64,000 nt of DNA from NCBI GenBank assembly GCA_964479005.1, contig CAYZJA010000001.1, positions 250,225-314,224 of the forward strand. Reading direction: 5' to 3'. The stretch is from an uncultured Candidatus Saccharibacteria bacterium. Lineage in GTDB: Bacteria > Patescibacteriota > Minisyncoccia > UBA6257. The notes beneath the pieces are model-generated. The model was not told the DNA's origin. It made no database searches and saw only the letters and a program-made list of their open reading frames with translations. Shown piece after piece: positions 7,914 through 52,083 of this stretch (position 1 is the stretch's first letter; every line of letters begins with the position of its first letter). Position numbers and translations under genes: made by a program.

Positions 7914-8188
7914 TTTATATTTATTAAGAAGCAAGTATTTGTTCCTGAACGACATTAATGGAAGCAGAAGTACAAACAAATGAAACGAACGAAAAGGAAA
8001 GCCGGAACGAGCGAAGCCACGTTAGAAGTAAACTTCTAACGTGGCGAAGCGGATTCCGGAAGGCTTCCAGAGTGAGTGAATATTGTTTGTCTCTGTTGGA
8101 ATGTAGGAGTGAAGGAAAAATACTTGCTGAATTGTTGTCCCCTGTTTTTCCACGATTGAGTTTGCCTGACTTTATACGTCATGATAAA

Positions 8189-9124
8189 ATGAAGCTGTTG
8201 AATAATTTAAAACATATGAGACAAATATTTAAAGGAAAAATTACTTGGGTAGATATTACCTGCCCTGTTCAAGAAGACATTGAATATCTTCGCAAAAACT
8301 ATCGTTTTCACCCTATTATCTTGGAGGAGCTTAAAACGCCTTCCCAGAGAAATAAAACCGAAGCGCACGATGGCTATATTTTTTTAGTAACTCATTTCCC
8401 ATGTTGGAACGCTGTTGAAAAAAAATCTTCCCCATGGGAACTGGATATTATATTAGATAAAAATACTCTTATTACGATTTGTTATGAAAAAAGCACGACG
8501 ATGCGTGAAGAACTTATGGAAAAAGTTTATACAAAAGATTTTGAGAATTTATATCTTAGCGACACTATAAAACTTCTTTATTTTATTATTGAATATTTTT
8601 TGGATTTTGCCATACGGCAAATTTATCACATTCAGAAAAAGATTAATGATGTGGAAAAAGACATATTCCAAGGAAAAGCAGAAGACGCAATTCCTAATAT
8701 CTCCTTCGTAAAAAGAGATGTTCTGAATTTTCAAAGAATATTTAGGTATTTAAAAGAAACTCTATGTTCTTTATCCAGGCAAGGACCACGAATTTTTGGA
8801 GAAAATAAACGTATTTATTTTGACGATTTAGTCGGTGATAGCACTAAAGTAGAAAATCTTATTGATAATTTCAAGGACACTATAGAATCATTGGAAAATA
8901 CAAATAATTCCTTGATGGAACATAAAATCAATCTCTTAACCAGAATTTATACAATTCTTTCTCTTGTAACCTGGCCTACTATATTAGTCACTAGTATTTA
9001 TCAAATGAATACTAGTTATTTACCTTTTACGGGTTATCCTTATGATTTTTGGCTTATCCTATTAATTGCTTTTATACCATCAATATTAATCTTTTCTTAC
9101 CTTAAAAAAAGAAAGTTTCTATAA
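8189..9124 (+). CDS. corA: CorA-family divalent cation (Mg2+/Co2+) transporter
   Basis: Two C-terminal TM helices preceded by YQMNTSYLPF (variant of CorA YGMNF motif); acidic soluble N-domain. ORF-track start 7958 gives a 77-aa R/S-rich N-extension with atypical composition, so start is placed at Met 8189 (MKLLNNLKHMRQIF). Confidence 0.7.
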   Translation: MKLLNNLKHMRQIFKGKITWVDITCPVQEDIEYLRKNYRFHPIILEELKTPSQRNKTEAHDGYIFLVTHFPCWNAVEKKSSPWELDIILDKNTLITICYEKSTTMREELMEKVYTKDFENLYLSDTIKLLYFIIEYFLDFAIRQIYHIQKKINDVEKDIFQGKAEDAIPNISFVKRDVLNFQRIFRYLKETLCSLSRQGPRIFGENKRIYFDDLVGDSTKVENLIDNFKDTIESLENTNNSLMEHKINLLTRIYTILSLVTWPTILVTSIYQMNTSYLPFTGYPYDFWLILLIAFIPSILIFSYLKKRKFL

Positions 9125-9178
9125 GAACCTGCCTTGTTTCACTCGGCAGAACCTTGTTTTTCACTACACTCAAAATAA

Positions 9179-10642
9179 ATGATTTATTTTTACAATACCC
9201 TCACTAAAAAGAAGCAGGTTTTTAAACCAATAAAAAATAAGCAAGTTGGGCTTTATACTTGCGGTCCCACTGTTTATTCAACAGCGCATATTGGGAATTT
9301 AAGAACATACATCTTTGGGGATATTTTAAAAAGAGTTTTATTGTATCAAGGGTACAAAGTTAAACACGTAATGAACATTACTGATGTCGGACATTTAACT
9401 TCTGACGCTGATACAGGTGAAGACAAAATAGAAAAAGCGGCAAAAAAAACAAAAAAATCCGCTTTTGAAATAGCCGAATTTTATACTAAATCTTTCTTTG
9501 TTGATTGTAAAAAATTAAACATTCTCACTCCAGATATAATAGCCAAGGCAACAGATCATATTAAAGAAGACATTGAGCTCATTAAATCTTTAGAAAAAAA
9601 TAACTTCACTTATCAAACTAGTGACGGAATCTATTTTGATACTTCTAAATTGAAAGATTATGGAAAGTTAACCGGAATGAATTTTAAAAAACTTAATAAA
9701 ACATTAAAGGCTGGCGCAAGAATAGAATTATCTCCAGAGAAAAAGAATATTACTGATTTTTCCCTTTGGAAATTCTCTCCTAAAAATTCCAAAAGACAAA
9801 TGGAATGGGAATCACCTTGGGGACGTGGTTTTCCAGGATGGCATATTGAATGCTCTGTCATTAATTTAAAATATTTAGGCAAAGCTTTTAAAGGAAAAAA
9901 ACTTTTTCCAAAAAAAGCACAAACAATTGATATACATACTGGAGGAACAGATTTAATACCAATTCATCATACAAATGAAATAGCCCAAGTAGAGGCTGTA
10001 ACAAATAAAAAATTTGTAAATTTCTGGCTTCATGGAGAATTCCTTGTTTTAAAAGACGCACGAATGGGAAAATCTGAAAGTAATGCAATTTTAATTAAAA
10101 ACATTGAAGAATCCGTTTTTTCTCCCCTAGCATTTCGTTATTTAGCTCTAAATAGCCATTACAGAACATTATTGGAATTTTCTCAAAAAGCATTGGAAAA
10201 TGCCCAAGAAAGTCTGAATAATATTCATAATTTTATTCTAGATTGCTTAATTGATAAGAAAAGAATTCAAAAAAAGAAAACGCCAACTTTTTCATTAAAT
10301 CAAATCAAAAAAGAATTTGAAAAATCAATTAATGACGATCTTAATACTCCAAGGGCTTTGGCTGCTTTCTGGAAACTAATAAAAGATTATTATCAAATTA
10401 GAAGCAATCCAAAAGAAATCTACCAAATAGCCCTGAGTTTTGATAAAGTATTAGGGTTAGGATTAGATAAAATCAAACTCGTTATTCCGCCAAAAAAGAT
10501 AAAAGAATTAGCAAAAAAAAGGGAACAATTAAGAGAAATGAGAAAATGGGCAGAAGCCGATAAAATAAGAAAAATTATAGAAAAAGCTGGATTTTTGCTA
10601 GAAGACACAAAAAAAGGTACAATTATAAAACCAAAACTTTAA
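9179..10642 (+). CDS. cysS: cysteinyl-tRNA synthetase
   Basis: [17 protein letters not shown] (HIGH region), PGWHIECS zinc-binding motif, RMGKS (KMSKS-like). Confidence 0.85.
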
Positions 10643-10652
10643 TATCTAATAT

Positions 10653-12029
10653 ATGGCCGAGAAAAATATTACTGAAGGAAAACTTCCACCTCAAAATATA
10701 GAGGCAGAAGAATCAACATTAGGATCTCTTATGATAGATAAGGACGCGATTGTTAAAATTGCTGATGTTTTATTCCCTGAAGACTTTTATCAACCCCAAC
10801 ATCGCATTATCTATAAAGCCATTTTAAACTTATACCAACAAAATGCCCCAATTGATGTTCTTTCATTGTCTAATCGCCTAAAAGAAAAAAAACAATTGGG
10901 TGAAATAGGAGGAGCAAGTTTTTTAACGTCTTTGGTCAATAAAACGCCTACAAGCGCCCATGTGGTTCATTATGCAAATATTGTTCACGAAAAAAGAGTA
11001 TTGCGTGATTTAATCGCCGCTTCTTATAAAATTGCTGAGTTAGGATGGCAAGAATCAGAAAATATAAATGAGGTTTTAGACAACGCAGAACAAATCATTT
11101 TCTCTATTTCTGAAAAATCTATAGCGCATGAATTTGTGGCTTTAAAAGGAGAACTGGTTAAAGCTTTTGAGAGAATAGACCAATTGCATAAAGGTGGTGA
11201 TAAATTACGGGGAATAGCTACAGGATTTCATGATTTAGATCATTATCTTGGAGGTTTACAAAAATCTGATTTAATTATTTTGGGAGGAAGACCTTCTTTA
11301 GGAAAAACATCTCTCGCTTTAGATATTGCGCGTCATGTAGCTTTAAAAGAAAAAGTTCCCGTAGGAATATTCAGTATAGAAATGTCAAAAGATCAAGTAG
11401 TTGACAGATTAATAGCAGCTGAATCTACAGTTGGTTTATGGAAAATAAGGACGGGGCGCCTTTCTACTGATGAAGATATTAATGATTTTACCCTTATTCA
11501 GGATTCTTTATCTCGCTTGTCCGAAGCCCCAATATTTATTGATGACGCTGCTTCACCCACAGTAATGCAAATTCGAACAATGGCGCGTCGACTACAGGCA
11601 GAAACAAATTTAGGATTAATCATTGTGGACTATATCCAACTAATTAGCCCTTCACTTTCTCGTGAAAGCACCGTCCAGCAATATTCTGAAATTTCGCGTT
11701 CCTTAAAAGCTTTATCAAGGGAATTAAAAATACCTGTATTAGCCATTTCACAGCTTAATCGTGCTGTTGAAGCAAGGCCATTATGTATTCCCAAACTCTC
11801 TGACTTAAGGGAAACTGGTAGTTTAGAACAAGATGCTGATGTAGTCCTTTTTGTCTACCGTGAAGACCGTTATAAAGAAGATTCTGAGAATAAAAATATT
11901 GCTAAAATTATAATTGCAAAACATCGTAATGGTCCTTTAGGTCATGCAAATCTGTTCTTTAATGAACAATTGGCAAGTTTCCGCAACCTGGAAAAAGATG
12001 AAAAGTTTCCTGGCCTAGAAGGAGAATAA
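10653..12029 (+). CDS. dnaB: replicative DNA helicase DnaB
   Basis: Walker A GGRPSLGKTSLALDIA; full-length DnaB N- and C-domains (LSDLRETGSLEQDADVVLF). Confidence 0.9.
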   Translation: MAEKNITEGKLPPQNIEAEESTLGSLMIDKDAIVKIADVLFPEDFYQPQHRIIYKAILNLYQQNAPIDVLSLSNRLKEKKQLGEIGGASFLTSLVNKTPTSAHVVHYANIVHEKRVLRDLIAASYKIAELGWQESENINEVLDNAEQIIFSISEKSIAHEFVALKGELVKAFERIDQLHKGGDKLRGIATGFHDLDHYLGGLQKSDLIILGGRPSLGKTSLALDIARHVALKEKVPVGIFSIEMSKDQVVDRLIAAESTVGLWKIRTGRLSTDEDINDFTLIQDSLSRLSEAPIFIDDAASPTVMQIRTMARRLQAETNLGLIIVDYIQLISPSLSRESTVQQYSEISRSLKALSRELKIPVLAISQLNRAVEARPLCIPKLSDLRETGSLEQDADVVLFVYREDRYKEDSENKNIAKIIIAKHRNGPLGHANLFFNEQLASFRNLEKDEKFPGLEGE

Positions 12030-13458: not shown

Positions 13459-14682
13459 CTACTTTCTTAATTCCTCGGTAATCTTCTCCATTTCCATTGA
13501 ATGAGAACCTTTAATCAATACCAAATCACCTTTTTTTATTATTTTTTTAATTGATGTTTTTGCTTCTTGGCTATCTTTAAACCAAAAAGTTTCTATATTA
13601 GAATATTCATCATCAATTATTTGCTTTGCAAAAACCATTTCTTCCCCAACAGCAATAAAAACTTGAGCTATATTTGCTATGTCTTTTCCAATTTCTATAT
13701 GAGCCTGATTTGAATTTACTCCTAATTCTTTCATATCCCCTAAAATAACGATTTTTCTTTTTGCAGGAACTTCTTTAAGTAAATCAAGCGCAACACGAAC
13801 TGAATCTGGACAAGCGTTATAAGAATCATCTAATAGCCAGCTGTTATTTATCCCACGCATAAATTTTGTTCTGCCTTTCATTATTTTATAATTTTTCATT
13901 GCTTCGCTAATCTCTACCAAATTCATGTCTAAAGATAGCCCCACAGTAGCGGCGGCGGCTAAAGCATAAATTTGTCCTTTTCCAAAAACACCTTCAATCC
14001 TCACTGGCACAAAACTACCACTAGATTCTAAGCGAAAATTCATTCCTATATTTTCTAAATCCTCTGTGTTAATTAATTTATATTCTGTTATTTTAACATC
14101 AGAATTTTCAGAAAAACCGTAAGAAAAAACTTTAGCAACGGTTTTGTCTTTTAAATTTAAAACTAACGGGTTATCGGCGTTTAAAACAATCGCATCATCC
14201 AAAGATAAACTTTGGGGCAAATAACTTATTTCTTCAATCAACTGATTAATATTTCTATAATACTCTAAATGAACAGGCGGATCTCCAATACTAGTAACTA
14301 CACCTATTTTAGGCTGAGCTAAATTAACTAAATATTTTATCATGCCAGGAGCATCTTCAGACATCTCAAGAATTAATATTTCTGGATATGTTTTTGTTTT
14401 AAAAATAAACAGCCAAAAAGTATGAAAAAAATTATAAAACCAAAGCAAAATATTTCGTTTAGCATCTTTGCCCCTAATTATAGTAAGAGGCATTCCTATC
14501 TCTGTATTTAAATTAAAAATATTTCTTTCGACTCTAAATCTTTTTCTCAGAACAGTATAAATTGTTTCTTTTGTGGAAGTTTTTCCAACGCTTCCTGTTA
14601 CGCCAATAATAAGAGGCTTATAGCGCCACAAAATAAGCTTTGCAAGATATTTAAGTATGTATTGAATAAATTTTCTTTTCAT
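13459..14682 (-). CDS. murF: Mur ligase family protein, most likely MurF
   Basis: ATP-binding GVTGSVGKTSTKE; middle and C-terminal Mur ligase domains; located after ftsI in dcw cluster; MurE cannot be excluded. Confidence 0.65.
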   Translation of the reverse strand: MKRKFIQYILKYLAKLILWRYKPLIIGVTGSVGKTSTKETIYTVLRKRFRVERNIFNLNTEIGMPLTIIRGKDAKRNILLWFYNFFHTFWLFIFKTKTYPEILILEMSEDAPGMIKYLVNLAQPKIGVVTSIGDPPVHLEYYRNINQLIEEISYLPQSLSLDDAIVLNADNPLVLNLKDKTVAKVFSYGFSENSDVKITEYKLINTEDLENIGMNFRLESSGSFVPVRIEGVFGKGQIYALAAAATVGLSLDMNLVEISEAMKNYKIMKGRTKFMRGINNSWLLDDSYNACPDSVRVALDLLKEVPAKRKIVILGDMKELGVNSNQAHIEIGKDIANIAQVFIAVGEEMVFAKQIIDDEYSNIETFWFKDSQEAKTSIKKIIKKGDLVLIKGSHSMEMEKITEELRK

Positions 14683-14777
14683 AATCTATAGCTCGTCTGA
14701 TGGAATATTATATTAATTTATTGTTCCTCATCTGGAGGAACATTATATTAATTTATCAAAATTTGATAAATTAATTA

Positions 14778-16556
14778 TTATTCCTCGTCCGGAGGAATAT
14801 TATAATAATTTATTAAAAATTGTTCAACTTCTCTAAAAGCTAAAGTTACTGTATAACTAGCAGCTTCTTTGCCCCATTGTGGTCTATCCATTTTTACTAA
14901 AACAATATATTTGGGATTTGAAGCTGGAAAGAACCCCACAAAGGTGTGAATAACATCATCAGAATACCCTTTTTTATCTTTTAGAGCCACAAAAGAAGTC
15001 CCTGTCTTGCCAGCAAGGCTATAGCCTTTAACTTTAGCATTCCCACCAAAACCATTTTCAATTACTCCGATTAACATTGAGGTTAAGGTTTCTGCGGTTT
15101 CCTGTTTTATTACTTGAGGAAAATCTGATAAAGATTCAGTTAACATTAGAGTAGTGCGATTACCGGCTTTGTCTCTTGTACTTTCCACTAAATATGGAGT
15201 AACTAAATGTCCTTTATTCGCTATTGCCGTATAAGCTTTAAGTAATTCCATAGGCGTAACAGATATTCCAACTCCATAAGAAGCAGTTGCAGAATATGTG
15301 GGATTGGATTTTGGATATTCTAAATTAGATAAATCACCACTGACTTCTAAAGGTAAATCTATTCCCGTTGTATCTGCAAAACCAAATTTTTTAAAATATT
15401 TTCTTAAATTCTCACTTCCTACTTTCTCAGATACAAAAATTGCTCCGGTATTTATAGAACGCTCTAAAACATCGCGCATTGTAGACTTTCCATGAACTTC
15501 ATTTCGATAATTAGTCAAATGAAAACCACCCACTTCATAATACCCTTTATCAATATAAGTAGTATCTGGAGTAACTTTATCAATATCAAGACCAACTGCC
15601 ATAGTAAAAGGTTTTATCACTGAGCCAGGTTCGTATCTTTCTTCTGTAGCAAAATTTCTAAAAATTGAATAATTCTCTATATCAGAAAAATCATTAAGAT
15701 TAAATGTTGGTATATTGGCTAACGCTAAAATTCTTCCTGTTTTTACTTCCATTACAATAATTGTACCTTTACTTGCTTCCCTGTACTTTATCAAATCCTC
15801 CAAAATTCTGTCAGTAGCAAATTGAATATTTTTATCTATAGTGGTTTCAATTGAAAGTCCTTGAATAGTTTTTTCTTCTTCAGAAAAGTTGGAACGAACT
15901 AAACGCCCCAAGGCATCTTTAATGCCCATAAAAATGCCTTTCTTGCCAGAAAGAATAGTATCATAATAAGATTCCAATCCATAACGCCCTTTAATTAATC
16001 CGTCGTCCGTCTCTCCTACAAATCCAATTACTTGGGCAGCAGAAGAACCTAATGGATAATAGCGATAACTCTCCTCTTCAAGATAAATACCTTTTATCTG
16101 CGCGTTCTGAATATTATCAATCAAATCATCGTCTTCAATTTTTTTAAGAAGTGGCTCATATGGATCATCTGCTTTATTTAAACGTGAAAATATCTGCTCA
16201 TAAGACAAAGGAATTATTTTTGATAAAAGCTCACTTGCTTCTTCTGGGTTTTCTATTTCTTTTGGAATGGCGTAAAGAGAATCATATTTTTTATTAATGG
16301 CAACAGGAATATATTCCTTATTTTTATCCTGAAAATAAATTAAACCCCTATTAGGGGGTAAAATTGTAGTTGTATCATGAAGAGCTTCTGCCTGATTTAC
16401 AAACTTTAAATTCTCTTTTACCTGAATGTTATAAAGCCGATAACCTAAAAATAGAAAAAGAATAATAAATAAAAAATGAATAACGGAAATTTTTCCTTGA
16501 AAAGATTGGCTATTTCTACGAGTCCTTTTAAAAAAATTCTTATTTTTTCTTCTCAT
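14778..16556 (-). CDS. ftsI: peptidoglycan D,D-transpeptidase FtsI (PBP3-type class B PBP)
   Basis: N-terminal TM anchor; SxxK (GSVIKPF), SxN (RSINTG), KTG (AGKTGTS); dcw-cluster position. Confidence 0.8.
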   Translation of the reverse strand: MRRKNKNFFKRTRRNSQSFQGKISVIHFLFIILFLFLGYRLYNIQVKENLKFVNQAEALHDTTTILPPNRGLIYFQDKNKEYIPVAINKKYDSLYAIPKEIENPEEASELLSKIIPLSYEQIFSRLNKADDPYEPLLKKIEDDDLIDNIQNAQIKGIYLEEESYRYYPLGSSAAQVIGFVGETDDGLIKGRYGLESYYDTILSGKKGIFMGIKDALGRLVRSNFSEEEKTIQGLSIETTIDKNIQFATDRILEDLIKYREASKGTIIVMEVKTGRILALANIPTFNLNDFSDIENYSIFRNFATEERYEPGSVIKPFTMAVGLDIDKVTPDTTYIDKGYYEVGGFHLTNYRNEVHGKSTMRDVLERSINTGAIFVSEKVGSENLRKYFKKFGFADTTGIDLPLEVSGDLSNLEYPKSNPTYSATASYGVGISVTPMELLKAYTAIANKGHLVTPYLVESTRDKAGNRTTLMLTESLSDFPQVIKQETAETLTSMLIGVIENGFGGNAKVKGYSLAGKTGTSFVALKDKKGYSDDVIHTFVGFFPASNPKYIVLVKMDRPQWGKEAASYTVTLAFREVEQFLINYYNIPPDEE

Positions 16557-16615
16557 AGAAAACTTATTATGAGTAAAACGAATAACAAGGTTCTGCGAGC
16601 AAAGCGAGTAGGTTC

Positions 16616-17083
16616 TTATTTTTGGGCTAAATTATCATTCATCAGATTTAAGTAAGAAATATGCCCTACTTTTATAAAACCATTGTCTTTAGCCCATTCT
16701 TCTATTTCTTGAGAAGAAGTGATAAATGCAGATTTTTCTGTTAAATAATCAAGTTCTTCTTGATTCTGGCTGATCTCATTTTTTAAATTATGAATCATGT
16801 AATTAAGAGAGATATTTTTCCCAAAAAGCACTAGCCAACAACTTCCAATCATTAAAAATGGAATTAAAAGAAGAATAACTAATTTAATATGTCCTATATA
16901 CTCCCCTGCTTCATTTATAAAACATTGCAATTTTCTTTTTTTGCGAGAGCTATACTTTCTAGCAGAGCGCAAAACAATTGCATGTTTTCTATTATTTTTG
17001 TTGCAATTATAGATAGTTGTCATGAATGAGATTAAATAATTAATAGTAATTAAGTAATTTTGTAACTCATAATTTACAATCAT
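16616..17083 (-). CDS. FtsL-like cell division protein (single TM + coiled coil)
   Basis: Position between rsmH and ftsI; one TM helix followed by heptad-like region (NLKNEISQNQEELDYLTEK); sequence itself not diagnostic. Confidence 0.4.
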   Translation of the reverse strand: MIVNYELQNYLITINYLISFMTTIYNCNKNNRKHAIVLRSARKYSSRKKRKLQCFINEAGEYIGHIKLVILLLIPFLMIGSCWLVLFGKNISLNYMIHNLKNEISQNQEELDYLTEKSAFITSSQEIEEWAKDNGFIKVGHISYLNLMNDNLAQK

Positions 17084-17977
17084 TCATAATCTTTCAGCAA
17101 CGCGCAGTTTAGCAGAACGAGAACGTGGATTATTTCTAATTTCTTCTGGGCAAGGATTTATTGGTTTTTTAGTGAGTATACTCAATTCTCCAATTTTAGC
17201 TTTTTCTCTAAAGATATTTTTTATAATTCTATCTTCTAAAGAATGAAATGAAATTACTGCAATTCTTCCTCCTGGTTCTAATATTTTAATAGCCTGCTTA
17301 ATTCCACTTTCTATTATTTGCAATTCATTATTTACAGCAATACGCAAAGCTTGAAATGTACGTGTGGCAAAATGTATTCTTTTCTTGTCATAATTCTTTG
17401 GGAGGGTTCTTTTTAAAATATCTACCAACTGTTGAGTTCCAACAATCCTTTCTTTTTTCCTCACTTCTTTAATCGCTAAAGAAATACGACGCGCATACCT
17501 TTCTTCTCCAAATTCTTTTAAAATTTCTTCTATTTTCTCTATATCCCAAAAATTTATAATCTCTGCAGCTGTTAAATCATTCTTAGGATTAAAGCGCATA
17601 TCCAATGGTTCATCTTTCAAATAAGAAAATCCCTTTCCTGATGCTTCTAAGTGCCATGAACACATTCCTAAATCAAATAAAATTCCGTGAACTGGCTTAA
17701 AATCATTTTCCTTAACAATCTTTTCCAAATTAGCGTAAGAATCATTTACTAAAATCAATCTATCTTTTAATTTTTCATTTTTACTTTTTATTTCAGCGAT
17801 TTTTCCTATAACTTCTTTTGATAAATCTATGCCTAATAATTTTCCATCTGGTTCGATCAATTTAAGAATAGTTAACGCATGCCCTCCTTGACCTACTGTC
17901 GTATCAATAAAATTTTCGTTTGCTTGCGGGTCCAGATAATCAATTACTTCTTTTAGAAGGACTGGAACATGCGCCAT
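17084..17977 (-). CDS. rsmH: 16S rRNA (cytosine1402-N4)-methyltransferase RsmH (MraW)
   Basis: MAHVPVLLKEVIDYL...DTTVGQGGHA SAM-binding motif; follows mraZ. Confidence 0.9.
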   Translation of the reverse strand: MAHVPVLLKEVIDYLDPQANENFIDTTVGQGGHALTILKLIEPDGKLLGIDLSKEVIGKIAEIKSKNEKLKDRLILVNDSYANLEKIVKENDFKPVHGILFDLGMCSWHLEASGKGFSYLKDEPLDMRFNPKNDLTAAEIINFWDIEKIEEILKEFGEERYARRISLAIKEVRKKERIVGTQQLVDILKRTLPKNYDKKRIHFATRTFQALRIAVNNELQIIESGIKQAIKILEPGGRIAVISFHSLEDRIIKNIFREKAKIGELSILTKKPINPCPEEIRNNPRSRSAKLRVAERL

Positions 17978-17981
17978 AATT

Positions 17982-18413
17982 TTATATTCCTAAATCTCCT
18001 AATTTTTCCGCTATATCACCAGATTCTTTTTCTGTTCTCTTTTTGTATTTTTCCCATTCTTTTTCATCCCAAACTTCTAAACGATTATAAACACCTGCCA
18101 AAACAATTTTCTTTTTTAACCCCACATATCTTCTTAAATAATCTGGAACAAGAATCCTCCCTTGGCTGTCTAACTTAATACCCATTGCACCAGCAAGCAT
18201 TAGCCTGGAAAAAGCCCGAGAATTAGATTGGCTCAAAGGTAATCCTTTAATTTTTTCTGCCATTTGTTGCCAATCTTTTGAAGAGAAAATAAAAAGACAA
18301 TTATCTAATCCTTTTGTAATAACTCCCCCTCTAGAAAGAACCTTCCTCAGCTTAGAGGGAATAGCTATTCTTCCTTTTGGATCTATTGTGTAATAATATT
18401 CTCCAATAAACAT
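17982..18413 (-). CDS. mraZ: transcriptional regulator MraZ
   Basis: MFIGEYYYTIDPKGRIAIPSKLR and second DxxGRxxxP repeat (LDSQGRILVPDYLR); ORF-track N-extension (to 18470) covers DnaA boxes and is considered spurious. Confidence 0.85.
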   Translation of the reverse strand: MFIGEYYYTIDPKGRIAIPSKLRKVLSRGGVITKGLDNCLFIFSSKDWQQMAEKIKGLPLSQSNSRAFSRLMLAGAMGIKLDSQGRILVPDYLRRYVGLKKKIVLAGVYNRLEVWDEKEWEKYKKRTEKESGDIAEKLGDLGI

Positions 18414-18431
18414 AATAAATAAATTCAAAAG

Positions 18432-18481
18432 TTTTCCACAAAAAACATATTTATCCCCACACTTATCCACATCTATCCACT
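18432..18481 (+). promoter_or_regulatory. cluster of four DnaA-box-like 9-mers (TTTTCCACA, TTATCCCCA, TTATCCACA, CTATCCACT) in direct orientation upstream of mraZ
   Basis: Matches to TTATCCACA consensus (0-2 mismatches) at ~18432, 18451, 18463, 18473. Confidence 0.55.
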
Positions 18482-18609
18482 TTCTTCCATTTTACTCCCC
18501 ATTGACCCATAAAGTCAAGGAGGAAAAATAAAAAATCCTCTATTTTTAATAGAAGATTTTTCCGCTTAAATAAAGCAAAAGCTACAATATATTAATTAAA
18601 ACCTAAAAA

Positions 18610-18629
18610 CTATCCCCATATTATCCACA
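18610..18629 (+). promoter_or_regulatory. two further DnaA-box-like 9-mers (CTATCCCCA, TTATCCACA) flanking an AT-rich stretch
   Basis: Read from sequence; second box overlaps stop of DUF134 gene. Confidence 0.45.
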
Positions 18630-18899
18630 AATTATTTTTATAGCTTTACCATTTATCAAAGCATCTGATATTTTCTTATATGCTGATAATAATATTCTTT
18701 GAAAAGTGCTTTGTGATGTATTCATCTTTTTAGCTGCTCCATGTTGGTCTAGATCTTTTATATTTTTCAATCTTAAAGCTTCTACTTCTTCAGCAGTTAA
18801 TTCTACGATTTCTAAAAACCTCATTGGTATACCTTGGGGTTTAAAATAAGTTATATTTGTATTAAATCTAATTCTTCGACAAAGTCTTGGTCTTGGCAT
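18621..18899 (-). CDS. DUF134/UPF0251-family putative DNA-binding protein
   Basis: MPRPRLCRRIRF...YFKPQGIPMR...ELTAEEVEALRLKNI...AAKKMNTSQSTFQRILLSAYKKISDALINGKAIKI matches the remembered UPF0251 pattern (MPRPRK.R.V...FKP.G.P...L.LDE.EA.RL.D......AA..M.VSR.TF.R....AR.KVADALV.GKA); start moved to internal Met. Confidence 0.7.
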   Translation of the reverse strand: MPRPRLCRRIRFNTNITYFKPQGIPMRFLEIVELTAEEVEALRLKNIKDLDQHGAAKKMNTSQSTFQRILLSAYKKISDALINGKAIKIICG

Positions 18900-18979
18900 A
18901 GTTAAATTATTAAAATAATTGAGTAAGGCTATTCCAGCCCTTTTCAGTAAAAAGGGCTGGATCATAACCTTTTTTGTCC

Positions 18980-19243
18980 TTATTTTTGGCTCTTTAGTTC
19001 AGCGAGGCGTTCTTTAATAGCCTTTAATTCATCTTCTAAAGCTTCGGTTTCATCAATCAACATCTCAGTTTCTTCTTTTTTTGTAATACGGGTTGAATAT
19101 GGTGAATTATAGCCCCAGGATCTACCAAATCCACGTCCAAATCCGCGACCTCTTCCCCATCCCATTCCAGCGCCACATGGACCCATACCCCAGCCAGTTC
19201 CAGGACCGAAGCCTGAAGGACCAGTTCCATCAAATCTTGGCAT
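18980..19243 (-). CDS. DUF5320-family protein (Gly-rich N-terminus, C-terminal coiled coil)
   Basis: MPRFDGTGPSGFGPGTGWGMGPCGAG...RGRGFGRGFG then acidic coiled coil; this family commonly neighbours DUF134. Confidence 0.6.
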   Translation of the reverse strand: MPRFDGTGPSGFGPGTGWGMGPCGAGMGWGRGRGFGRGFGRSWGYNSPYSTRITKKEETEMLIDETEALEDELKAIKERLAELKSQK

Positions 19244-23208: not shown

Positions 23209-24651
23209 CTATACCCATCCTAACACCATTGCCAATCCCAAAACAAATATAATTAAACCAGTAATTAAGTGCAAATACCTTATGTTTTTATCTTTCCACC
23301 CACTAACATCTTCAATTTTTGCAAAACCAACATATATTATTAATGTTATCAGAATCATAGGTAAGATAAAAATCAAATTATACAAAAGTAAGAAAGGTAT
23401 TGTTTTAATTAACTCTAAAGTAGATAAAATACCACCTGCTATAACATAAGGACCTATTGTGCAAGGCAAAAGAAAAACAGTTACGAAAAGACCAGTAATA
23501 AAAGCTCCCTTGGGACTAGTTATACCTGAAATTATTTTTTTAACTTTTGGTCTTATGCTAAGAGGCATTTCTGTTAAAAAACTACCAGCCTTGTATCTTA
23601 TAGCATCTTTTATGTTTAAAATTCCTAAAATAATAGCGGCATAACCAAGAATCTTGTACAACAATACCCTAACATTAGTTAACGCTTCAATAAGTTGAAA
23701 AGATTTTATAATAACTAATCCATAAAATAAATACATAATAAAAACTGAACAAGCAAAGGCAAATCCAGCAAGTAGTACATCTCTTTTTTTCTTTGGATTA
23801 TAGGTTAAAATCGCTACTAACATTAAAGCCAAAACAGCCAAAGCGCAAGGATTTATCGCATCAACAACCGCAAGAGAAAGAATTTTTGTTAATGTGAGCT
23901 TTTTCCCCGGGACACTTTTGGAAGATATATCTATAACTGTAGATGTAGTATCTTTTTGTATATTCGCTTGTTGCACATCTCTATCTATCTCTTCTCCATT
24001 CCATTGAAAAATCCAACCATCTAATTGAATAGCATTATCAAAATATATCTTTTTTCCAGAAAGAAGAACTGGCCTTGGTTCTATAATCTCATAATTAATC
24101 TCTTCTGTATCTATAACAGAAGTAATATCGTCTATCGTTAATAATTCTTTTAATATCTCACTATCACCTTTTCCACTAATCTTTATCAAAATCTTCTGAT
24201 TTTTCCATATTTTTGGTTGGCCCTCCAAAGAAGTTATATCAAGATTATTAAAATCAACCGAAGAACCGTCTATTAAAGGACAGTTATTATTATCAAATTT
24301 ATTAATTGTTCCGTTTATATTTTCAATAATTGGAGCGCCTCCAATAAGATAGTTGTCCTGATTAAATATTATTAAAGGTATACCTAGCCCAGAATGATAT
24401 TCAGAATCGTATTCAAAAAGTAAAGGCGCATTTACTTGTTGCTGATAAATTTCATATTCTATTATAACTAAGTCAGGATATTCCCTTAATAAATCAATAA
24501 GAACAACTGGATCTGTTTTAGCGCAATACGAGCATCCAATCCCTGTAAAATAAACAGCGCAAATAGCGTTTTGCTCATCTTTTGCTAAAGCAACTGGCAA
24601 TAAGCTGCCAATAAATAATAACGTAAATACAATAAATAATAACTTCCTCAT
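23209..24651 (-). CDS. thioredoxin-like domain fused to CcdA/DsbD-family membrane thiol-disulfide transporter
   Basis: Signal peptide; CxxC (GIGCSYCAK) in N-terminal domain; C-terminal polytopic domain with conserved TM cysteines (INPCALAVL, LLPCTIGPYV) typical of CcdA/DsbD-beta. Confidence 0.7.
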   Translation of the reverse strand: MRKLLFIVFTLLFIGSLLPVALAKDEQNAICAVYFTGIGCSYCAKTDPVVLIDLLREYPDLVIIEYEIYQQQVNAPLLFEYDSEYHSGLGIPLIIFNQDNYLIGGAPIIENINGTINKFDNNNCPLIDGSSVDFNNLDITSLEGQPKIWKNQKILIKISGKGDSEILKELLTIDDITSVIDTEEINYEIIEPRPVLLSGKKIYFDNAIQLDGWIFQWNGEEIDRDVQQANIQKDTTSTVIDISSKSVPGKKLTLTKILSLAVVDAINPCALAVLALMLVAILTYNPKKKRDVLLAGFAFACSVFIMYLFYGLVIIKSFQLIEALTNVRVLLYKILGYAAIILGILNIKDAIRYKAGSFLTEMPLSIRPKVKKIISGITSPKGAFITGLFVTVFLLPCTIGPYVIAGGILSTLELIKTIPFLLLYNLIFILPMILITLIIYVGFAKIEDVSGWKDKNIRYLHLITGLIIFVLGLAMVLGWV

Positions 24652-31460: not shown

Positions 31461-31778
31461 TCAATTATCTTTGGGAATTTTTATTGTCTTTTTCCCTCTT
31501 TCCTTTCTCTTTTTTTTTGACTTTCTTCCACTCAATGCCCATTCAAGCCATTCTTTTTTCTCTATTCCAGACTGCCTGATCATTGTTCTAAGAGTTAATT
31601 CTGGATAAGACTTCGCATTTGTATTAAAATTTATTTCTACTATTTTATCATCTCCACTACTAATCCAAACCTTCCAATCATCATGAGAACCATCTTTAGA
31701 TTTAAAAAAACTAAAACCGTGAGATTTTAGAAAATTAATAACATCTTTATATGACCAATTACGAAATCTTCTTGGCAT
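31461..31778 (-). CDS. HicA-family toxin (YcfA-like mRNA interferase) with K-rich C-terminal tail
   Basis: ...FLKSHGFSFFKSKDGSHDDWKV... (GSH motif) and ...TLRTMIRQSGI match HicA pattern. Confidence 0.6.
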   Translation of the reverse strand: MPRRFRNWSYKDVINFLKSHGFSFFKSKDGSHDDWKVWISSGDDKIVEINFNTNAKSYPELTLRTMIRQSGIEKKEWLEWALSGRKSKKKRKERGKKTIKIPKDN

Positions 31779-31787
31779 AACTTAAAA

Positions 31788-32150
31788 TTAAGCCAAACAA
31801 CCAACCAAAGCAGGAATGGAGTTAGGGTTGTATTTAAGTTGCTTAGCCGATTCCAACCTGACTCGTGTAAGCTTTTGTTCTTTAATCTTTTTCTGAAATT
31901 CAAAATATTTATCCCAAAACTCTTGGGGTGCATAACGATTTAGTAAATCATCAGAAAGTTGTTTTCTGCAAACAGTTTTAAGATGAAGAATAGCTGCCTC
32001 TTCTACACTTTTCATTACTTCAATTGAGTTGTCACCTTCTTCAATAATATCAAAAGTAAGACAGACTCCAACGAATTTATCTCCACTTGAATAACCAAAA
32101 AATTCCATTAAACCTCTTCGTTTAGTGTTTTTAGGTCTCAATATTTTCAT
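31788..32150 (-). CDS. HicB-like antitoxin candidate
   Basis: Adjacent upstream of HicA; FVGVCLTFDIIEEGDNSIEVMKSVEEAAILHLK resembles HicB N-terminal (RNase H-like) pattern; weak. Confidence 0.4.
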   Translation of the reverse strand: MKILRPKNTKRRGLMEFFGYSSGDKFVGVCLTFDIIEEGDNSIEVMKSVEEAAILHLKTVCRKQLSDDLLNRYAPQEFWDKYFEFQKKIKEQKLTRVRLESAKQLKYNPNSIPALVGCLA

Positions 32151-32323: not shown

Positions 32324-33565
32324 TTACAAAATGGGATTTTTCTTTTCTAGTAAATCCTTAACTGTGATTAGCCTTATTTCTAACTCCTTCTTATTTTTAA
32401 TCCTTGCTACTTCCTCGTAAGCACCCTTAGTAAAACTAAAAGCTACAATATAACCCTTTTTATAATTTGCCCTTTTTAGGGCAGTCTCAAAATTATCTAT
32501 AACATTACGCCCTACTTTATCAGACTGCTTTACCTGTATTCCTGCTTCTTCAGTTAAAACACTCCTTGGGTAATAACCATCTAGCCCCATATCCCCAACT
32601 TTCTTTCTGCTCGCATTAGCCCTCATTTTGTCTATCACTACCCAGTTTTGAAACTCAAAAGGTTCTAATTTTTTTACTTCCTCTATTGTAGTCGGCATAC
32701 CAATCACTTCATAATCAATACCCTCTATCGTTCCTAAAGTTTTTCCTAATCTTCGTTGCATTATCTTGATTGCTGTTGGTGAAATATCTATTCCTATCCA
32801 CCTTCTACCCAATCGTTGAGCTACAGCTACTGTTGTTCCGCAACCACAAAAAGCGTCTAAAACTATATCATTTTTGTTTGAGGACGCCTCTATTATTCTT
32901 TTTAAAAGTGCTTCTGGTTTTTGGGTGGGATAACCTACTCGCTCTTCTGCCATTGGATTTATTACGGGTATATTCCATACATCTTCCACCATTTTCCCTA
33001 ACGGATTACCTTCCCACTTATAGACTTTCTTTTTTCCACCTGGTCTTCTAATAGCGACTTCGTCTTTTAGTTCTCGGCAGTATTCTTCCTTAAGACTCGG
33101 TTCATTATAATTAAAAGTCCAATTATCTCCTTTTGTATAAAAATAAATTGTATCGTGTTTTCTTGGAAACCTTGTTTTACTTTGTCCGCCGCCCTTATAA
33201 GCCCAAATAATCTCATTTCTAAAATTTTCTACCCCAAATATCTCATCTAACATAATTCTTATATGAGCGTTGGCATGCCAATCGCAATGTATGTAAAAAG
33301 AGCCTGTAGATTTCAATATCTCATACAATGCTTGAACTCTTGGTTTAAGCCAACTAATATAATTTTCTGTTCCGCCCTCCCATCTATCTTTAAAACTTCT
33401 AATCTCCGCCTCATCGCCAAATACAACTTCATACTGTTTATGAGTAAAAAATGGCGGGTCAATATAAATCAGATCTATACTCTCTTTAGGAAGTTTAGCT
33501 AACTCTTCTAAATTATCGCCGCAAATAAGTTTGTTAATCTGCCAAAGTTTATTCTGATTAGACAT
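32324..33565 (-). CDS. beta-class N6-adenine/N4-cytosine DNA methyltransferase (orphan, no adjacent restriction enzyme)
   Basis: Motif IV IYIDPPFF near N-terminus; motif I VLDAFCGCGTTVAVAQRLGRRWIGIDIS near C-terminal half. Confidence 0.85.
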   Translation of the reverse strand: MSNQNKLWQINKLICGDNLEELAKLPKESIDLIYIDPPFFTHKQYEVVFGDEAEIRSFKDRWEGGTENYISWLKPRVQALYEILKSTGSFYIHCDWHANAHIRIMLDEIFGVENFRNEIIWAYKGGGQSKTRFPRKHDTIYFYTKGDNWTFNYNEPSLKEEYCRELKDEVAIRRPGGKKKVYKWEGNPLGKMVEDVWNIPVINPMAEERVGYPTQKPEALLKRIIEASSNKNDIVLDAFCGCGTTVAVAQRLGRRWIGIDISPTAIKIMQRRLGKTLGTIEGIDYEVIGMPTTIEEVKKLEPFEFQNWVVIDKMRANASRKKVGDMGLDGYYPRSVLTEEAGIQVKQSDKVGRNVIDNFETALKRANYKKGYIVAFSFTKGAYEEVARIKNKKELEIRLITVKDLLEKKNPIL

Positions 33566-33910: not shown

Positions 33911-34744
33911 ATGACTGACAAAAAAATGCAAGGATGGCTCTCAGAGGCTAAAAATCCTAAAATAGAGCAAACAATAAGACTTCTAAAAATTAATAAAGAA
34001 TTTTTAAAGGATGTAGCTGTTTTACGAAAAAAATGGCCTAGTTTTATAGAAAAACATAAAACAGCAATAGATAAAATTATAATAGAACTAATAAAAATGG
34101 CTTATCAAGGATTCTTGAAGAAAGAAAAACCTTCCGATGTCGTTGAAAAAGCAAAAAAAAAGAATTTATTTCGCTCTGAAGAGCCAACTAAAGAAAATCT
34201 CTTTACCGCCAACACTAAATTTAATCAAGATATATTAGATCTATGTGAAAAATACAAACTCTATCCTATTAGTCTTTGGCGATATAGGGTAGCTATTTTT
34301 ATTGTAACTAATGATTTTTCTATTTCTAATAAATTAGCAGGAATGGATTTAGCAAAATATTTATCTCCAGAAGAAATAAGCCAAATTCCTGAAGATATGA
34401 ATTTTAGTCTTAAAATCGAAAAAAATAAAGATACCAAGGAACTAGAGTTATTCATTCAAGTATATGAAACTACATCTTTACGAGATTTGAAAAAATATTG
34501 GCATATGGTAAAACATTCTCAAGATAAGCTAAAAAAGGCCAAAAAGATAGACAAAAGATACTATCCTAAAAAAGGTCTAGAAACTGCAGAAAAGTTATTC
34601 ACATTAGATAAAACTAAATCAAAGTCTGATTGGGAAAAACATGATGCTATATATGGAGAACCTACTTCTTCTAGTAAAAAAGACGGGGAAAAAGAAACCA
34701 AAAAAACTAAAAATTTAAAAAGAATTAGGTATCGATATAAATAG
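33911..34744 (+). CDS. hypothetical Lys-rich protein
   Basis: ORF only; terminated by hairpin at 34808-34832. Confidence 0.4.
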   Translation: MTDKKMQGWLSEAKNPKIEQTIRLLKINKEFLKDVAVLRKKWPSFIEKHKTAIDKIIIELIKMAYQGFLKKEKPSDVVEKAKKKNLFRSEEPTKENLFTANTKFNQDILDLCEKYKLYPISLWRYRVAIFIVTNDFSISNKLAGMDLAKYLSPEEISQIPEDMNFSLKIEKNKDTKELELFIQVYETTSLRDLKKYWHMVKHSQDKLKKAKKIDKRYYPKKGLETAEKLFTLDKTKSKSDWEKHDAIYGEPTSSSKKDGEKETKKTKNLKRIRYRYK

Positions 34745-34807
34745 ATTTTTAAATTCGTAATTTGGGCTCATATCTTGAGACCAGTTTAAATTAGCAATTT
34801 TGTATAA

Positions 34808-34837
34808 TAACTCCAGAGATAATCTGGAGTTTTATGT
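34808..34837 (+). terminator. rho-independent terminator AACTCCAGA-GATAA-TCTGGAGTTTTAT
   Basis: 9-bp stem + T-run downstream of ORF 33911..34744. Confidence 0.7.
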
Positions 34838-35001
34838 TATTAAGCAAAAAAGCAATTAAGGAATTTAAAACGATCTATACCCGAAAATTTCATCAGGATA
34901 TAGATGACAAAACTGCTCAGGAAATGGCTAAAAGGCTCCTCCTGCTCTTTAAAATTGTCTATAAGCCCCCAACTAATAAACAATCAACTAAATATGACTA
35001 A
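34834..35001 (+). CDS. hypothetical 55-aa protein (MLLSKKAIKEFKTIYTRKFHQDIDDKTAQEMAKRLLLLFKIVYKPPTNKQSTKYD)
   Basis: Manual translation; below ORF-track cutoff; stop overlaps ATG of next ORF in ATGACTAA arrangement. Confidence 0.25.
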   Translation: MLLSKKAIKEFKTIYTRKFHQDIDDKTAQEMAKRLLLLFKIVYKPPTNKQSTKYD

Positions 35002-35290
35002 CGATAAATCTTATAATAATCTTAAAAAATGCCCTCGTTTTGATAGGTGCAATCAAAATTTATGTCCTCTTGATATAAGGCTTTCATTAAGAATCGGAGG
35101 ATCTGCTGAAAAATGTCGCTGGATGAGACCCCCTTCGAAGAAAACTATTCATGGTAAGGTCTTTATATCAGGAGGGCAGGTTATGCCAGATGGTTTATTG
35201 AATTTTGTGCCTGAGAGCAATTTAGAGTGGCTTAATACCCCCTCTAAAAAAAGATGGTTAGAAATTAAAAAAAATGAAACAAAATCCTAA
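34994..35290 (+). CDS. hypothetical Cys-rich small protein (CPRFDRCNQNLCPLD...)
   Basis: ORF-track entry 34904..35290 trimmed to internal Met that overlaps the preceding stop. Confidence 0.35.
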   Translation: MTNDKSYNNLKKCPRFDRCNQNLCPLDIRLSLRIGGSAEKCRWMRPPSKKTIHGKVFISGGQVMPDGLLNFVPESNLEWLNTPSKKRWLEIKKNETKS

Positions 35291-35795
35291 TACTAAATTG
35301 AAGCTTAGACCTTTACGTCTCAGGGGTGTCCCTTTTGCTTGGCAGGATACTAGATTAATCCCAAAAATCCGAGAGCATTTTCATAAAGAAAAGCTTACAA
35401 CTGCCCTTGCTTTATACTTTGTTTTAACAGAACTTGCTAGTATTGAAGGAAAAGGACAAGGAAAACATATAAATTGTTTAAAGGCATATCTAAAAACAAT
35501 AGCAGATCGTTGTGGTAAATCGGTATCAACAACCAAAAGATATCTCAAGGATTTTAAAAAATACAAAATTATATCCTGGAACAATCGTCGTAAAGGATTG
35601 ATGAATTTATCAAATGAATGGTTATTACTTCATTATTACCAGCCCACTAATGAACGTACCTCTATTCATAATGATAAACCTGTTATAAAGAATTATATAA
35701 AAAGAAGTTTTATTAATAATAAAAGGAATTATAAAAATGATAAAGATAAAGGGTTCGTTCCTATTAAGGAAATCATTGGCCGGAAGTATAAATAA
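35274..35795 (+). CDS. hypothetical basic protein with probable winged-helix DNA-binding region
   Basis: ORF only; ...TTALALYFVLTELAS...KSVSTTKRYLKDFKKYKII looks HTH-like. Confidence 0.35.
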   Translation: MKQNPNTKLKLRPLRLRGVPFAWQDTRLIPKIREHFHKEKLTTALALYFVLTELASIEGKGQGKHINCLKAYLKTIADRCGKSVSTTKRYLKDFKKYKIISWNNRRKGLMNLSNEWLLLHYYQPTNERTSIHNDKPVIKNYIKRSFINNKRNYKNDKDKGFVPIKEIIGRKYK

Positions 35796-35805
35796 GCTTG
35801 TAAAT

Positions 35806-36030
35806 TTAAGGGGGGGTATAGGGGGGTTCGCGCGCGCGAGGAATAATAAAAGATTTGCATAACAGTTGCAGTTGATTTTCATAAAGCAAAAGAGATATAA
35901 TAAAATATTGACCCAGATACCTCACAGGGAATCAATCTAGCGATAATGTCCTTAAAGGGGCGGTCTATACCAGTATTGCTGGATCCTTGTGAAACAGTGG
36001 GGCTGGGTCAATTATAGGCCGTCCCTTTAA
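35806..36030. other. GC-rich non-coding region upstream of recombinase: G7-TATA-G6, (CG)5 tract, and interleaved inverted repeats (TTAAAGGGGCGGTCTATA/TATAGGCCGTCCCTTTAA; TTGACCCAG/CTGGGTCAA)
   Basis: Read from sequence; right arm of the 18-bp imperfect dyad ends 10 nt before the recombinase ATG. Confidence 0.5.
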
Positions 36031-36040
36031 TTCTAAATTT

Positions 36041-37636: not shown

Positions 37637-37920
37637 GATTCGAACCTACAACCTACTGGTTACACCTAATCTCTAAGTTTCCTTAAAGGGTGGACTATAT
37701 CTTCACCTTGTCTGTTTAAAACAGATTTAGGTGTCTCGGTATCTAGTCTCTACGGCGCCCCCGTGTTATAACACAAGGTTCCCACGGTATTAGCATAGTT
37801 TGATATTATCAAACTTTAGCCTTCACCGTTATCCCGAGATGTTCATTCCAAGGTTTCCCCTGAAAGCTGCGAAATAGGAATCATCCACAGCCAGACGCTC
37901 TACCATTGAGCTACCGCGGA
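37625..37920 (-). tRNA. tRNA-Asn (anticodon GUU) interrupted by a ~224-nt group I-like intron in the anticodon loop; CCA not encoded
   Basis: 5' exon TCCGCGGTAGCTCAATGGTAGAGCGTCTGGCTGT (37887-37920) + 3' exon TAACCAGTAGGTTGTAGGTTCGAATCCTACCCGCGGAG (37625-37662) give cloverleaf with U1-A72, G73, loop CUGUUAA, T-loop GGTTCGAATCC. Confidence 0.7.
37663..37886 (-). other. group I (IC3-like) intron within tRNA-Asn
   Basis: Begins after exon U and ends with G; internal guide GCAGCU 17 nt in can pair exon GGCUGU (U.G at splice site); contains GUAGAGACUAGA...CACCUAA matching the J8/7-P7-P9.0 segment of Azoarcus/cyanobacterial tRNA group I introns; GGGGAAACC near 5' end. Confidence 0.6.
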
Positions 37921-37937
37921 ATGTTTTGATTATACTA

Positions 37938-52034: not shown

Positions 52035-52083
52035 AATAAATAACAATTAGCAATAAACAATTAACAAAAGCATTTATTATTAC

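Follow-up and report, generated by a model that had tools for sequence, protein, structure and literature searches.

A predicted MraZ operator probably accounts for a cluster of DnaA-box-like sites upstream of mraZ in a Patescibacteria bacterium

The region analyzed here, which lies within a stretch of 64 kb of DNA (called the window for simplicity), is best explained as the region controlling the dcw operon (mraZ-rsmH-ftsL-ftsI-mur) in a bacterium of the Patescibacteria (CPR). Its six DnaA-box-like 9-mers most likely serve MraZ, the product of the next gene, as GTGG docking sites. With a probability of roughly 0.8, the element would function as an MraZ autorepression operator on the dcw promoter, with binding and repression deduced by homology from the sequence. 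The proximal four sites are assigned to the MraZ autoregulatory operator of Pmra because they fit the architecture found across the clade and because their cores are conserved. The initial annotation had interpreted the same sites as a means by which DnaA couples the dcw operon to the state of replication initiation; its view that they are non-random and tied to mraZ/dcw control is borne out, whereas DnaA coupling is not the best-supported reading and the MraZ operator had been missed.

Genes, promoter and boxes in the window

MraZ homologues place the organism within Patescibacteria/CPR, close to Paceibacterota. The genes and the predicted control elements are as follows:

17982-18413, minus strand: mraZ, encoding 143 aa from the conserved ATG at 18413 (Pfam MraZ, E=4.8e-40)
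13459-17977, minus strand: operon genes downstream of mraZ, contiguous and co-oriented (Pfam)
17977-17084, minus strand: rsmH (Pfam, operon order)
17083-16616, minus strand: small ORF at the ftsL position (operon position)
16556-14778, minus strand: ftsI/PBP (Pfam)
14682-13459, minus strand: Mur ligase gene (Pfam)
18432-18440, minus strand: 5'-UTR box, TGTGGAAAA, with GTGG at 18439-18436, 21 bp downstream of box 3
18451-18460, minus strand: predicted MraZ box 3, GTGGGGATAA, with GTGG at 18460-18457 and also the 9-mer TGGGGATAA at 18459-18451
18463-18471, minus strand: predicted MraZ box 2, TGTGGATAA, with GTGG at 18470-18467; a perfect DnaA-consensus 9-mer
18473-18481, minus strand: predicted MraZ box 1, AGTGGATAG, with GTGG at 18480-18477
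18487-18510, minus strand: three degenerate boxes in the 10-bp register of the array, overlapping the -10 and the promoter spacer
18489-18518, minus strand: predicted sigma-70-type promoter of the mraZ operon (10/12 in a consensus scan; elements invariant in aligned relatives)
18520-18562, minus strand: intrinsic-terminator-like hairpin and U tract (RNA fold; 15-bp stem at 18562-18530)
18610-18629, minus strand: distal pair TGTGGATAA-ta-TGGGGATAG (spacer of 2 bp), located 148 bp upstream of box 1
18621-18965, minus strand: upstream DUF134 gene, outside the control element (Pfam DUF134, E=7e-19)

All close MraZ homologues are 143 aa long and begin with MFIGEY. The 162-aa, GTG-started ORF proposed by the ORF tool was rejected as mraZ, as it runs through the operator and its start is not the conserved one. 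Both DXXXR motifs are found in the MraZ of the window (D11PKGR15 and D82SQGR86), and in 18 aligned MraZ homologues K13, R15 and R86 as well as D11xxxR15 and D82xxxR86 are invariant. In the MraZ-DNA complex of M. genitalium, K13, R15 and R86 contact bases (PMC12957436).

The predicted promoter consists of a -35 element TTGACT (18518-18513), an 18-nt spacer and a -10 element TAAAAT (18494-18489), so that the mraZ sense strand reads TTGACT-18 nt-TAAAAT-ggaagaaa-GTGGatagatGTGGataagtGTGGggataa-atatgttttttGTGGaaaac...ATG. CTTGAC and TAAAATGG are invariant in the aligned close relatives. A reading of TGTGGATAAT as an extended -10 was discarded, the base after the 9-mer being mostly C and not T. Further upstream, the stem of the hairpin is kept in relatives despite changes on both arms (TCTTCTAT/ATAGAGGA versus TCCTCTAT/ATAGGGGA, with a shifted G-U wobble). 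The hairpin is a predicted intrinsic terminator insulating the mraZ promoter from upstream transcription, and a similar terminator-like stem-loop lies 5' of PmraZ in S. aureus (PMC11796246). A structured RNA element was also considered and rejected: an Rfam search of the region matched no known RNA family, and the terminator was the sole stable structure.

The mraZ strand carries GTGG-N6-GTGG-N6-GTGG at 18480-18457 (GTGGATAGATGTGGATAAGTGTGG), a pattern that occurs once in 64 kb compared to 0.00 expected occurrences, and GTGG-N6-GTGG occurs three times in the window (0.2 expected). The array thus contains at least three direct GTG(G/T) repeats at six-nucleotide spacing, in line with the MraZ box rule of a GTG(G/T) core and a 6-nt spacer, which was derived in M. 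genitalium by EMSA, reporter assays and cryo-EM (PMC12957436) and used likewise for B. subtilis MraZ (GTGGNNNNNNGTGG; bioRxiv 10.1101/2022.02.09.479790). The three GTGG boxes are located 44-67 bp 5' of the mraZ ATG, ahead of rsmH, the ORF at the ftsL position, ftsI and the Mur ligase gene. Some 8 nt past the -10, box 1 starts at the inferred transcription start or right beside it, and in close relatives only its GTGGA is conserved, while the remainder of the 9-mer varies. Box 2 is invariant in 10 of 11 aligned sequences (the window and ten relatives), the exception (locus L091) reading GGTGGATAA, and forms with box 3 a tandem pair with a 3-bp spacer. The degenerate boxes read ATGG (18490-18487), GGGG (18500-18497) and ATGG (18510-18507). 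The 5'-UTR box keeps the 10.5-bp phase of the array and corresponds to the "downstream box" seen in other Patescibacteria.

The six 9-mers named in the initial annotation were all found, on the plus strand and at the places given there. Relative to TTATCCACA, the proximal four are TTTTCCACA at 18432-18440 (one mismatch), TTATCCCCA at 18451-18459 (one mismatch), the perfect TTATCCACA at 18463-18471 and CTATCCACT at 18473-18481 (two mismatches), and the distal two are CTATCCCCA at 18610-18618 (two mismatches) and a second perfect TTATCCACA at 18621-18629. Only three of the six (those at 18432, 18463 and 18621) fit TTWTNCACA. The proximal four are located 19-68 bp 5' of the conserved mraZ start on the minus strand, and their start-to-start distances are 19, 12 and 10 bp; a spacing of 10-12 bp, as had been described for all four, therefore applies to three of them, the first distance being 19 bp.

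The cluster is non-random and far beyond chance. In the 64-kb window (background GC of about 31%), the perfect TTATCCACA occurs three times compared to 0.47 expected occurrences, with two of the three in this cluster, and 9-mers with at most one mismatch number 31 compared to 18.5 expected. Six same-strand sites with at most two mismatches within at most 200 bp were seen in none of 100 Markov-1 simulations, where the maximum was five. Shuffles and simulations of the window thus rule out chance occurrence of the 9-mer in AT-rich DNA as the cause of the cluster, which had been named at the outset as what could refute it. The window holds one other dense patch of 9-mers (24035-24235), made up of weak matches within a coding ORF. 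Tandem 9-mer pairs with a 2-3 bp spacer occur three times in the window (0.23 expected). Two of them belong to the cluster, namely 18629-18610 with a 2-bp spacer and the core pair 18471-18451 with a 3-bp spacer (TGTGGATAA-gtg-TGGGGATAA); the third "double box" at 31342-31323 was dismissed as a weak match which overlaps a start codon and coding sequence.

Conservation of the array across Patescibacteria

We compared the mraZ loci of 80 Patescibacteria species (390 kb) and nine loci of close relatives. The sense-strand pattern GTGG-N6-GTGG occurs 91 times in the 390 kb, with 88 of the 91 occurrences within 400 bp upstream of mraZ; 70 of the 80 loci carry it within 300 bp upstream of the gene, and antisense matches amount to just three. 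Distances from GTGG to GTGG show a sharp peak at 10 bp (87 pairs), followed by 20/21 and then 30/31 bp. Relative to the box adjacent to the -10, the slots of the array are found at -42, -21, 0, 10, 20/21, 30/31, 40/41 and 62-64. These slots keep a 10.5-bp phase over about 105 bp, which places all boxes on one face of the helix and fits a multi-subunit MraZ complex.

The architecture of the clade can be written as (G)TGTTGAC (-35)...GTGGtgTAtAATGG...aaaGTGGataaaaGTGGggA(t/a)AA...21-23 bp...cTGTGGATAAct, and the window matches it at each slot. The slot directly 5' of the -10 reads GTGG (GTGGtgTAtAATGG) in other Patescibacteria, and this anchor motif is present in 63 of 81 upstream regions. Boxes within the runs are preceded by AAA (AAAGTGG), similar to the AAAGTG(T/G) of Mollicutes, and the last box of a run has the consensus GTGGGGA(a/t)AA (74 cases). 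Counted from the last in-run box, about 33 of the 80 loci have a further box at a distance of +21 to +23, and 18 of these boxes are perfect TGTGGATAA. In this downstream box A6, A8 and A9 are invariant, the positions corresponding to W and N of TTWTNCACA vary, and variants of the TGGGGATAA type (GGGG, T3-to-G; equal to TTATCCCCA on the other strand) are common. Among the close relatives, changes affect the bases around the promoter elements and GTGG cores and also the upstream gene, but the elements and cores themselves do not vary.

The perfect 9-mer follows the same gene. The 80 loci contain 77 copies (55 sense TGTGGATAA and 22 antisense), all located within 500 bp upstream of mraZ, with none elsewhere in the 390 kb. 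Taking the best 9-mer in the 300 bp upstream, 49 of 75 loci have a perfect match and 74 of 75 one with no more than a single mismatch, compared to 0 of 1013 control windows with a perfect TTATCCACA; the enrichment includes genomes of 51-68% GC. Sense 9-mers are in helical phase with the array (mean 0.0 bp upstream and 0.3 bp downstream for a 10.5-bp period, uncorrected for species relatedness), and antisense 9-mers are unphased and adjoin terminators. The flanks, y-TGTGGATAA-c-T, are common to the two orientation classes. Boxes outside the runs read tGTGGATAA and those inside read aAAGTGGngAAAA, the first box of a run being DnaA-like in only about one third of the loci. Pairs of 9-mers spaced by 2-3 bp number 43, all of them upstream of mraZ. 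Neighboring 9-mers are most often 12 or 11 bp apart and GTGG cores 10 bp, so that the common core, (A/T)GTGGATAA-AAG-TGGGGATAA, can be read in both geometries. A single conserved upstream gene as the source of the antisense 9-mers was rejected because the genes differ (beta-CASP RNase, PGA_cap/Memo, nucleotidyl transferase, PD-(D/E)XK nuclease).

The distal pair is maintained in relatives irrespective of whether DUF134, a tRNA-like sequence, or an RRM gene with a terminator lies upstream. Both of its 9-mers are conserved around a spacer that can be TA, TG, AA or CT, its distance to the core is 142-151 bp in relatives and not phase-locked, and its period is 11 bp instead of 10 bp. In the window, the last DUF134 codons (tgt gga taa) overlap the first distal box, the stop codon lying inside the distal TTATCCACA. 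A DUF5320 gene is also found upstream (Pfam). Conservation of the pair next to different neighbors and with a free spacer shows that coding constraint does not explain it, and the possibility that the distal box is a by-product of the DUF134 stop codon was dropped, as the pair is kept where the neighbor differs. DUF134, a predicted DNA-binding protein, was likewise rejected as the reader of the boxes, since it is not conserved as the upstream neighbor among relatives and the boxes are.

Taken as an MraZ operator, the region would consist of a sigma-70-type promoter and, superimposed on it, phased MraZ boxes that lie on the sense (minus) strand. The three perfect GTGG boxes (18480-18457) would start approximately at the transcription start, the degenerate boxes would cover the -10 and the promoter spacer, and a further box would be located two helical turns downstream in the 5' UTR. 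By homology, an MraZ oligomer is expected to dock along a single face of the DNA, each box taking one subunit, and may thereby occlude the promoter and start site and repress its own operon. The distal pair might act in an auxiliary way, taking up a second MraZ ring or another factor; we infer both this role and the position of the transcription start.

Alternative readings of the 9-mers

Some observations are in tension with the MraZ operator. The documented base contacts of MraZ cover only GTG(G/T) (PMC12957436), whereas in boxes outside the runs conservation spans the full 9-mer and its flanks (yTGTGGATAAcT). A head-to-tail MraZ array does not easily accommodate the 22 antisense perfect 9-mers, and a model with MraZ only leaves unexplained both the unphased antisense 9-mers and the 11-bp distal pairs at 142-151 bp.

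One alternative is co-regulation through DnaA, possibly alongside MraZ, which we regard as doubtful yet worth weighing. DnaA dimers would bind the tandem pairs 18629-18610 and 18471-18451, so that dcw transcription would be coupled to the status of DnaA, and the two proteins might compete for the overlapping GTGG cores. The confinement of all 77 perfect 9-mers to the 500 bp upstream of mraZ and their presence in 49 of 75 upstream regions but in none of the controls, high-GC lineages included, speak for DnaA. So do the shared flanks, which occur in both orientations and resemble those of R1 and R4 of E. coli oriC (CTGTGGATAAC), and the difference between boxes outside and inside the runs. The 2-3 bp spacing of the 43 pairs is the one preferred by E. 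coli DnaA (PMC11317965); the 12- and 11-bp peaks of the 9-mer distances, the distal spacer that varies between conserved 9-mers, and the downstream site, in which A6, A8 and A9 are invariant and the W and N positions of the consensus vary, argue in the same direction.

Against DnaA stand the 10.5-bp phasing of the sense 9-mers with the array and the rigid distance of 21-23 bp to the downstream box, which are expected for members of one MraZ complex. The frequent T3-to-G variants break TTWTNCACA and fit the GTGGG-type MraZ boxes of E. coli, and DnaA of E. coli tolerates this change poorly. Box 1, for which the close relatives conserve just GTGGA, and the first run box, DnaA-like in a minority of loci, also disagree with DnaA. 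We know of no mraZ promoter at which DnaA binds; our literature searches for a described DnaA-mraZ link or for regulation of mraZ in CPR bacteria returned nothing relevant, and neither the paper on DnaA ChIP-seq in E. coli (PMC11317965) nor the one on in vitro DnaA binding in B. subtilis names mraZ in its text. At the E. coli mioC promoter, MraZ is reported to bind a site overlapping a DnaA box (PMC4446571), so that MraZ alone could account for the 9-mers. We therefore rank MraZ above DnaA for the 9-mers as well and consider co-binding of DnaA a minority possibility.

A tentative extension would see the mraZ control region of Patescibacteria as a dual-coded operator, in which GTGG every 10 bp is superimposed on 9-mers arranged in tandem at 2-3 bp spacing. 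The ends of the array would then be marked by consensus DnaA boxes whose flanks are like those of R1 and R4, with further copies upstream by the terminator in either orientation. In tiny genomes with few regulators, DnaA and MraZ might compete or cooperate at one promoter, and transcription of the operon for division and cell-wall functions would thereby be tied directly to replication initiation.

A titration or reservoir site similar to datA or to the DnaA-box clusters of B. subtilis, which would buffer free DnaA, appears very improbable to us. The cluster does contain six DnaA-like sites, two of them perfect, and is conserved in relatives, but these two are the only consensus boxes, no comparable cluster is found elsewhere in the window, and in 80 species the position of the boxes is fixed to one promoter, where they overlap the -10 and the predicted start site. 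Such a fixed position argues for promoter control rather than for a generic sink. Titration, which the initial annotation had offered as its second reading, thus finds no specific support.

Slightly less probable still is a G-quadruplex formed by the non-template G runs downstream of PmraZ, which would modulate transcription as proposed for S. aureus PmraZ, where a G4 in the mraZ promoter region was reported and its conservation claimed (PMC11796246). The sense strand indeed carries runs of GGGG, GG, GG, GG, GGGG and GG, but most of them are just GG and would yield at best a weak two-tetrad G4 in a context of about 31% GC, and what is conserved is GTGG repeated exactly every 10 bp between A-rich spacers and not the length of the G tracts.

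A chromosomal replication origin or its remnant, suggested by DnaA-like boxes on either side of an AT-rich stretch, can be practically dismissed: GC skew is negative in nearly every 2-kb bin of the 64-kb window and its cumulative curve falls steadily without a turn at 18.4 kb, the flanking genes are co-oriented on the minus strand on both sides, six-frame translations of the window and of related loci contain no DnaA signature motif, and all boxes are direct, on the mraZ sense strand and in a 10-bp register. The AT-rich tract, taken earlier for oriC-like architecture, holds the terminator (18562-18520) and the mraZ -35 and -10 and is not a DNA-unwinding element. The skew profile, a check proposed beforehand, shows no polarity switch, and the judgment that this is not an origin was correct.

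Implications and comparison with known systems

As an MraZ operator, the element would be ordinary, extending a well-characterized autoregulatory switch to the Candidate Phyla Radiation. Unusual in Patescibacteria is how closely these sites follow the DnaA consensus. By itself, a "DnaA-box cluster" ahead of mraZ is no evidence of an origin or of control by DnaA, and origin-prediction tools relying on DnaA-box clusters call for caution here. In the 390 kb sampled across the clade (80 species), perfect DnaA 9-mers, flanked as in oriC and spaced as DnaA pairs are, do not occur outside the region upstream of mraZ. If DnaA binds them, replication initiation and division-gene expression would be directly linked in organisms that are not yet genetically manipulable; if it does not, MraZ would have an extended sequence preference beyond the current four-base model.

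The closest counterpart is Pmra of E. coli (TAAACT-cctttca-GTGGGaaattGTGGGgcaaaGTGGG-...ATG), whose MraZ operator consists of three direct repeats downstream of the -10, as credited to Eraso et al. (2014) in PMC4446571 and PMC12957436. Both promoters have three sense-strand boxes with a 10-bp period starting 7-8 nt after the -10 (GTGGGaaattGTGGGgcaaaGTGGG in E. coli, GTGGatagatGTGGataagtGTGG in the window), and in both the operator lies directly 5' of mraZ, with which the dcw cluster begins. In contrast to the window, the boxes of E. coli are GTGGG, none resembles a DnaA 9-mer, and both the distal pair and the extra 5'-UTR box are absent.

With the four-box operator of M. genitalium (PMC12957436) and the repeats of B. 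subtilis (bioRxiv 10.1101/2022.02.09.479790), the window shares the GTG(G/T) core and 6-nt spacers, the A-rich bases before the boxes (AAAGTGG), the overlap with the transcription start (predicted in the window) and the conserved K13, R15, R86 and DXXXR motifs of MraZ. The array of Patescibacteria differs in that it appears longer, with up to about eight slots over about 105 bp, in that boxes also lie over the -35 and -10, and in that its end boxes read TGTGGATAA.

In vivo, E. coli DnaA binds almost exclusively to box pairs with a 2-3 bp spacer (Stringer, Fitzgerald and Wade, 2024, PMC11317965). The pairs of the window resemble these double boxes in that the 9-mers are 2 or 3 bp apart and one perfect box is combined with one matching at 7-8 of 9 positions, as at purH; they differ in being located in or next to the MraZ array and in the TTATCCCCA change of the weaker box. 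The DnaA box of E. coli mioC, TTTTCCACA (equal to TGTGGAAAA on the other strand), contains GTGG, with ATGG/TGGG 10 bp further on. This 9-mer is identical to the 5'-UTR box of the window, although mioC is another gene, adjoins oriC and has two boxes only.

Start codon and 5' untranslated region of mraZ

The mechanically called mraZ ORF spans 17982-18470 of the window on the minus strand (162 aa), and its GTG start at 18470 lies within box 2 (18463..18471, minus strand) of the operator, i.e. the phased GTGG array of putative MraZ sites in the mraZ/dcw promoter. The conserved mraZ start is the ATG at 18413, which yields a protein of 143 aa. A comparable N-terminal extension was found in several database homologues, namely P0010, P0027 (162 aa), P0013 (153 aa) and P0026 (152 aa), and these longer gene calls therefore probably read through the operator. 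In the 85%-identical relative (L001), approximately 70 nt are inserted in the 5' UTR between the downstream box, the 9-mer that follows the GTGG run, and the mraZ start (L001 2385-2480), and this insertion holds a GC-rich hairpin (gccaccgtcc...gggcggggc). Another long insertion, different from that of L001, is located at the same point of the mraZ 5' UTR in L091. The length of the mraZ 5' UTR is thus free to vary while the spacing between the boxes is not.

Terminators and genes upstream of the promoter

Two features of the window precede the mraZ promoter:
18520-18562, minus strand: terminator between the distal tandem pair of DnaA-like 9-mers and the mraZ promoter
18621-19243, minus strand: paired DUF134 and DUF5320 genes, immediately adjoining the mraZ region on its upstream side

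Comparison of the terminator with the relatives L083-L089 showed that its stem is kept even though bases in each arm change. Directly upstream of the terminator, the window and L083-L089 share a short conserved sequence, gctttatt(t/c)aagcg. In seven Magasanikbacteria-like loci (L011, L028, L038, L062, L063, L075 and L079) the mraZ promoter is preceded by a conserved intergenic module, which lies about 95-210 bp further upstream than the -10-adjacent box (the array slot beside the promoter -10) and consists, in this order, of an antisense TTATCCACA, a terminator hairpin with T tract and a conserved gttttattttagccaaaa stretch. The 5' arm of the hairpin is the 9-mer itself in L075 and L064. Alongside the pairing of box and terminator, tagccaaaa is a conserved element of this module.

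The DUF134/DUF5320 pair was found in the closest relatives only. The DUF134 gene of the window has a predicted HTH, the DUF134 product of a relative gives an additional weak match to sigma-70 region 4, and the DUF5320 gene of the window is glycine-rich. In L090, a sequence that is tRNA-like by appearance (2710-2795) lies directly upstream of the distal tandem pair, in the position that DUF134 has in the window.

GC skew, further 9-mers and other genes

GC skew is positive only at 8001-12000 and 34001-38000 of the window, stretches that may correspond to plus-strand genes, and is uniformly negative in the remainder. Several DnaA-like 9-mers with one mismatch are present at 55.4-56.8 kb, nearly all within ORFs; one falls in a 54-bp gap between two ORFs.

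Pfam searches identified three further genes:
32324-33565, minus strand: N6/N4 DNA methylase domain and C-terminal Mrr_cat restriction-endonuclease domain in a single fused ORF
50976-52046, minus strand: full-length MreB/Mbl paralogue (E about 1e-130)
56075-57082, minus strand: full-length MreB/Mbl paralogue (E about 1e-130)

Two small ORFs adjoining the methylase/Mrr_cat ORF (31461-32150) gave no Pfam match. The two MreB/Mbl paralogues are 4 kb apart, each within a co-oriented gene run.
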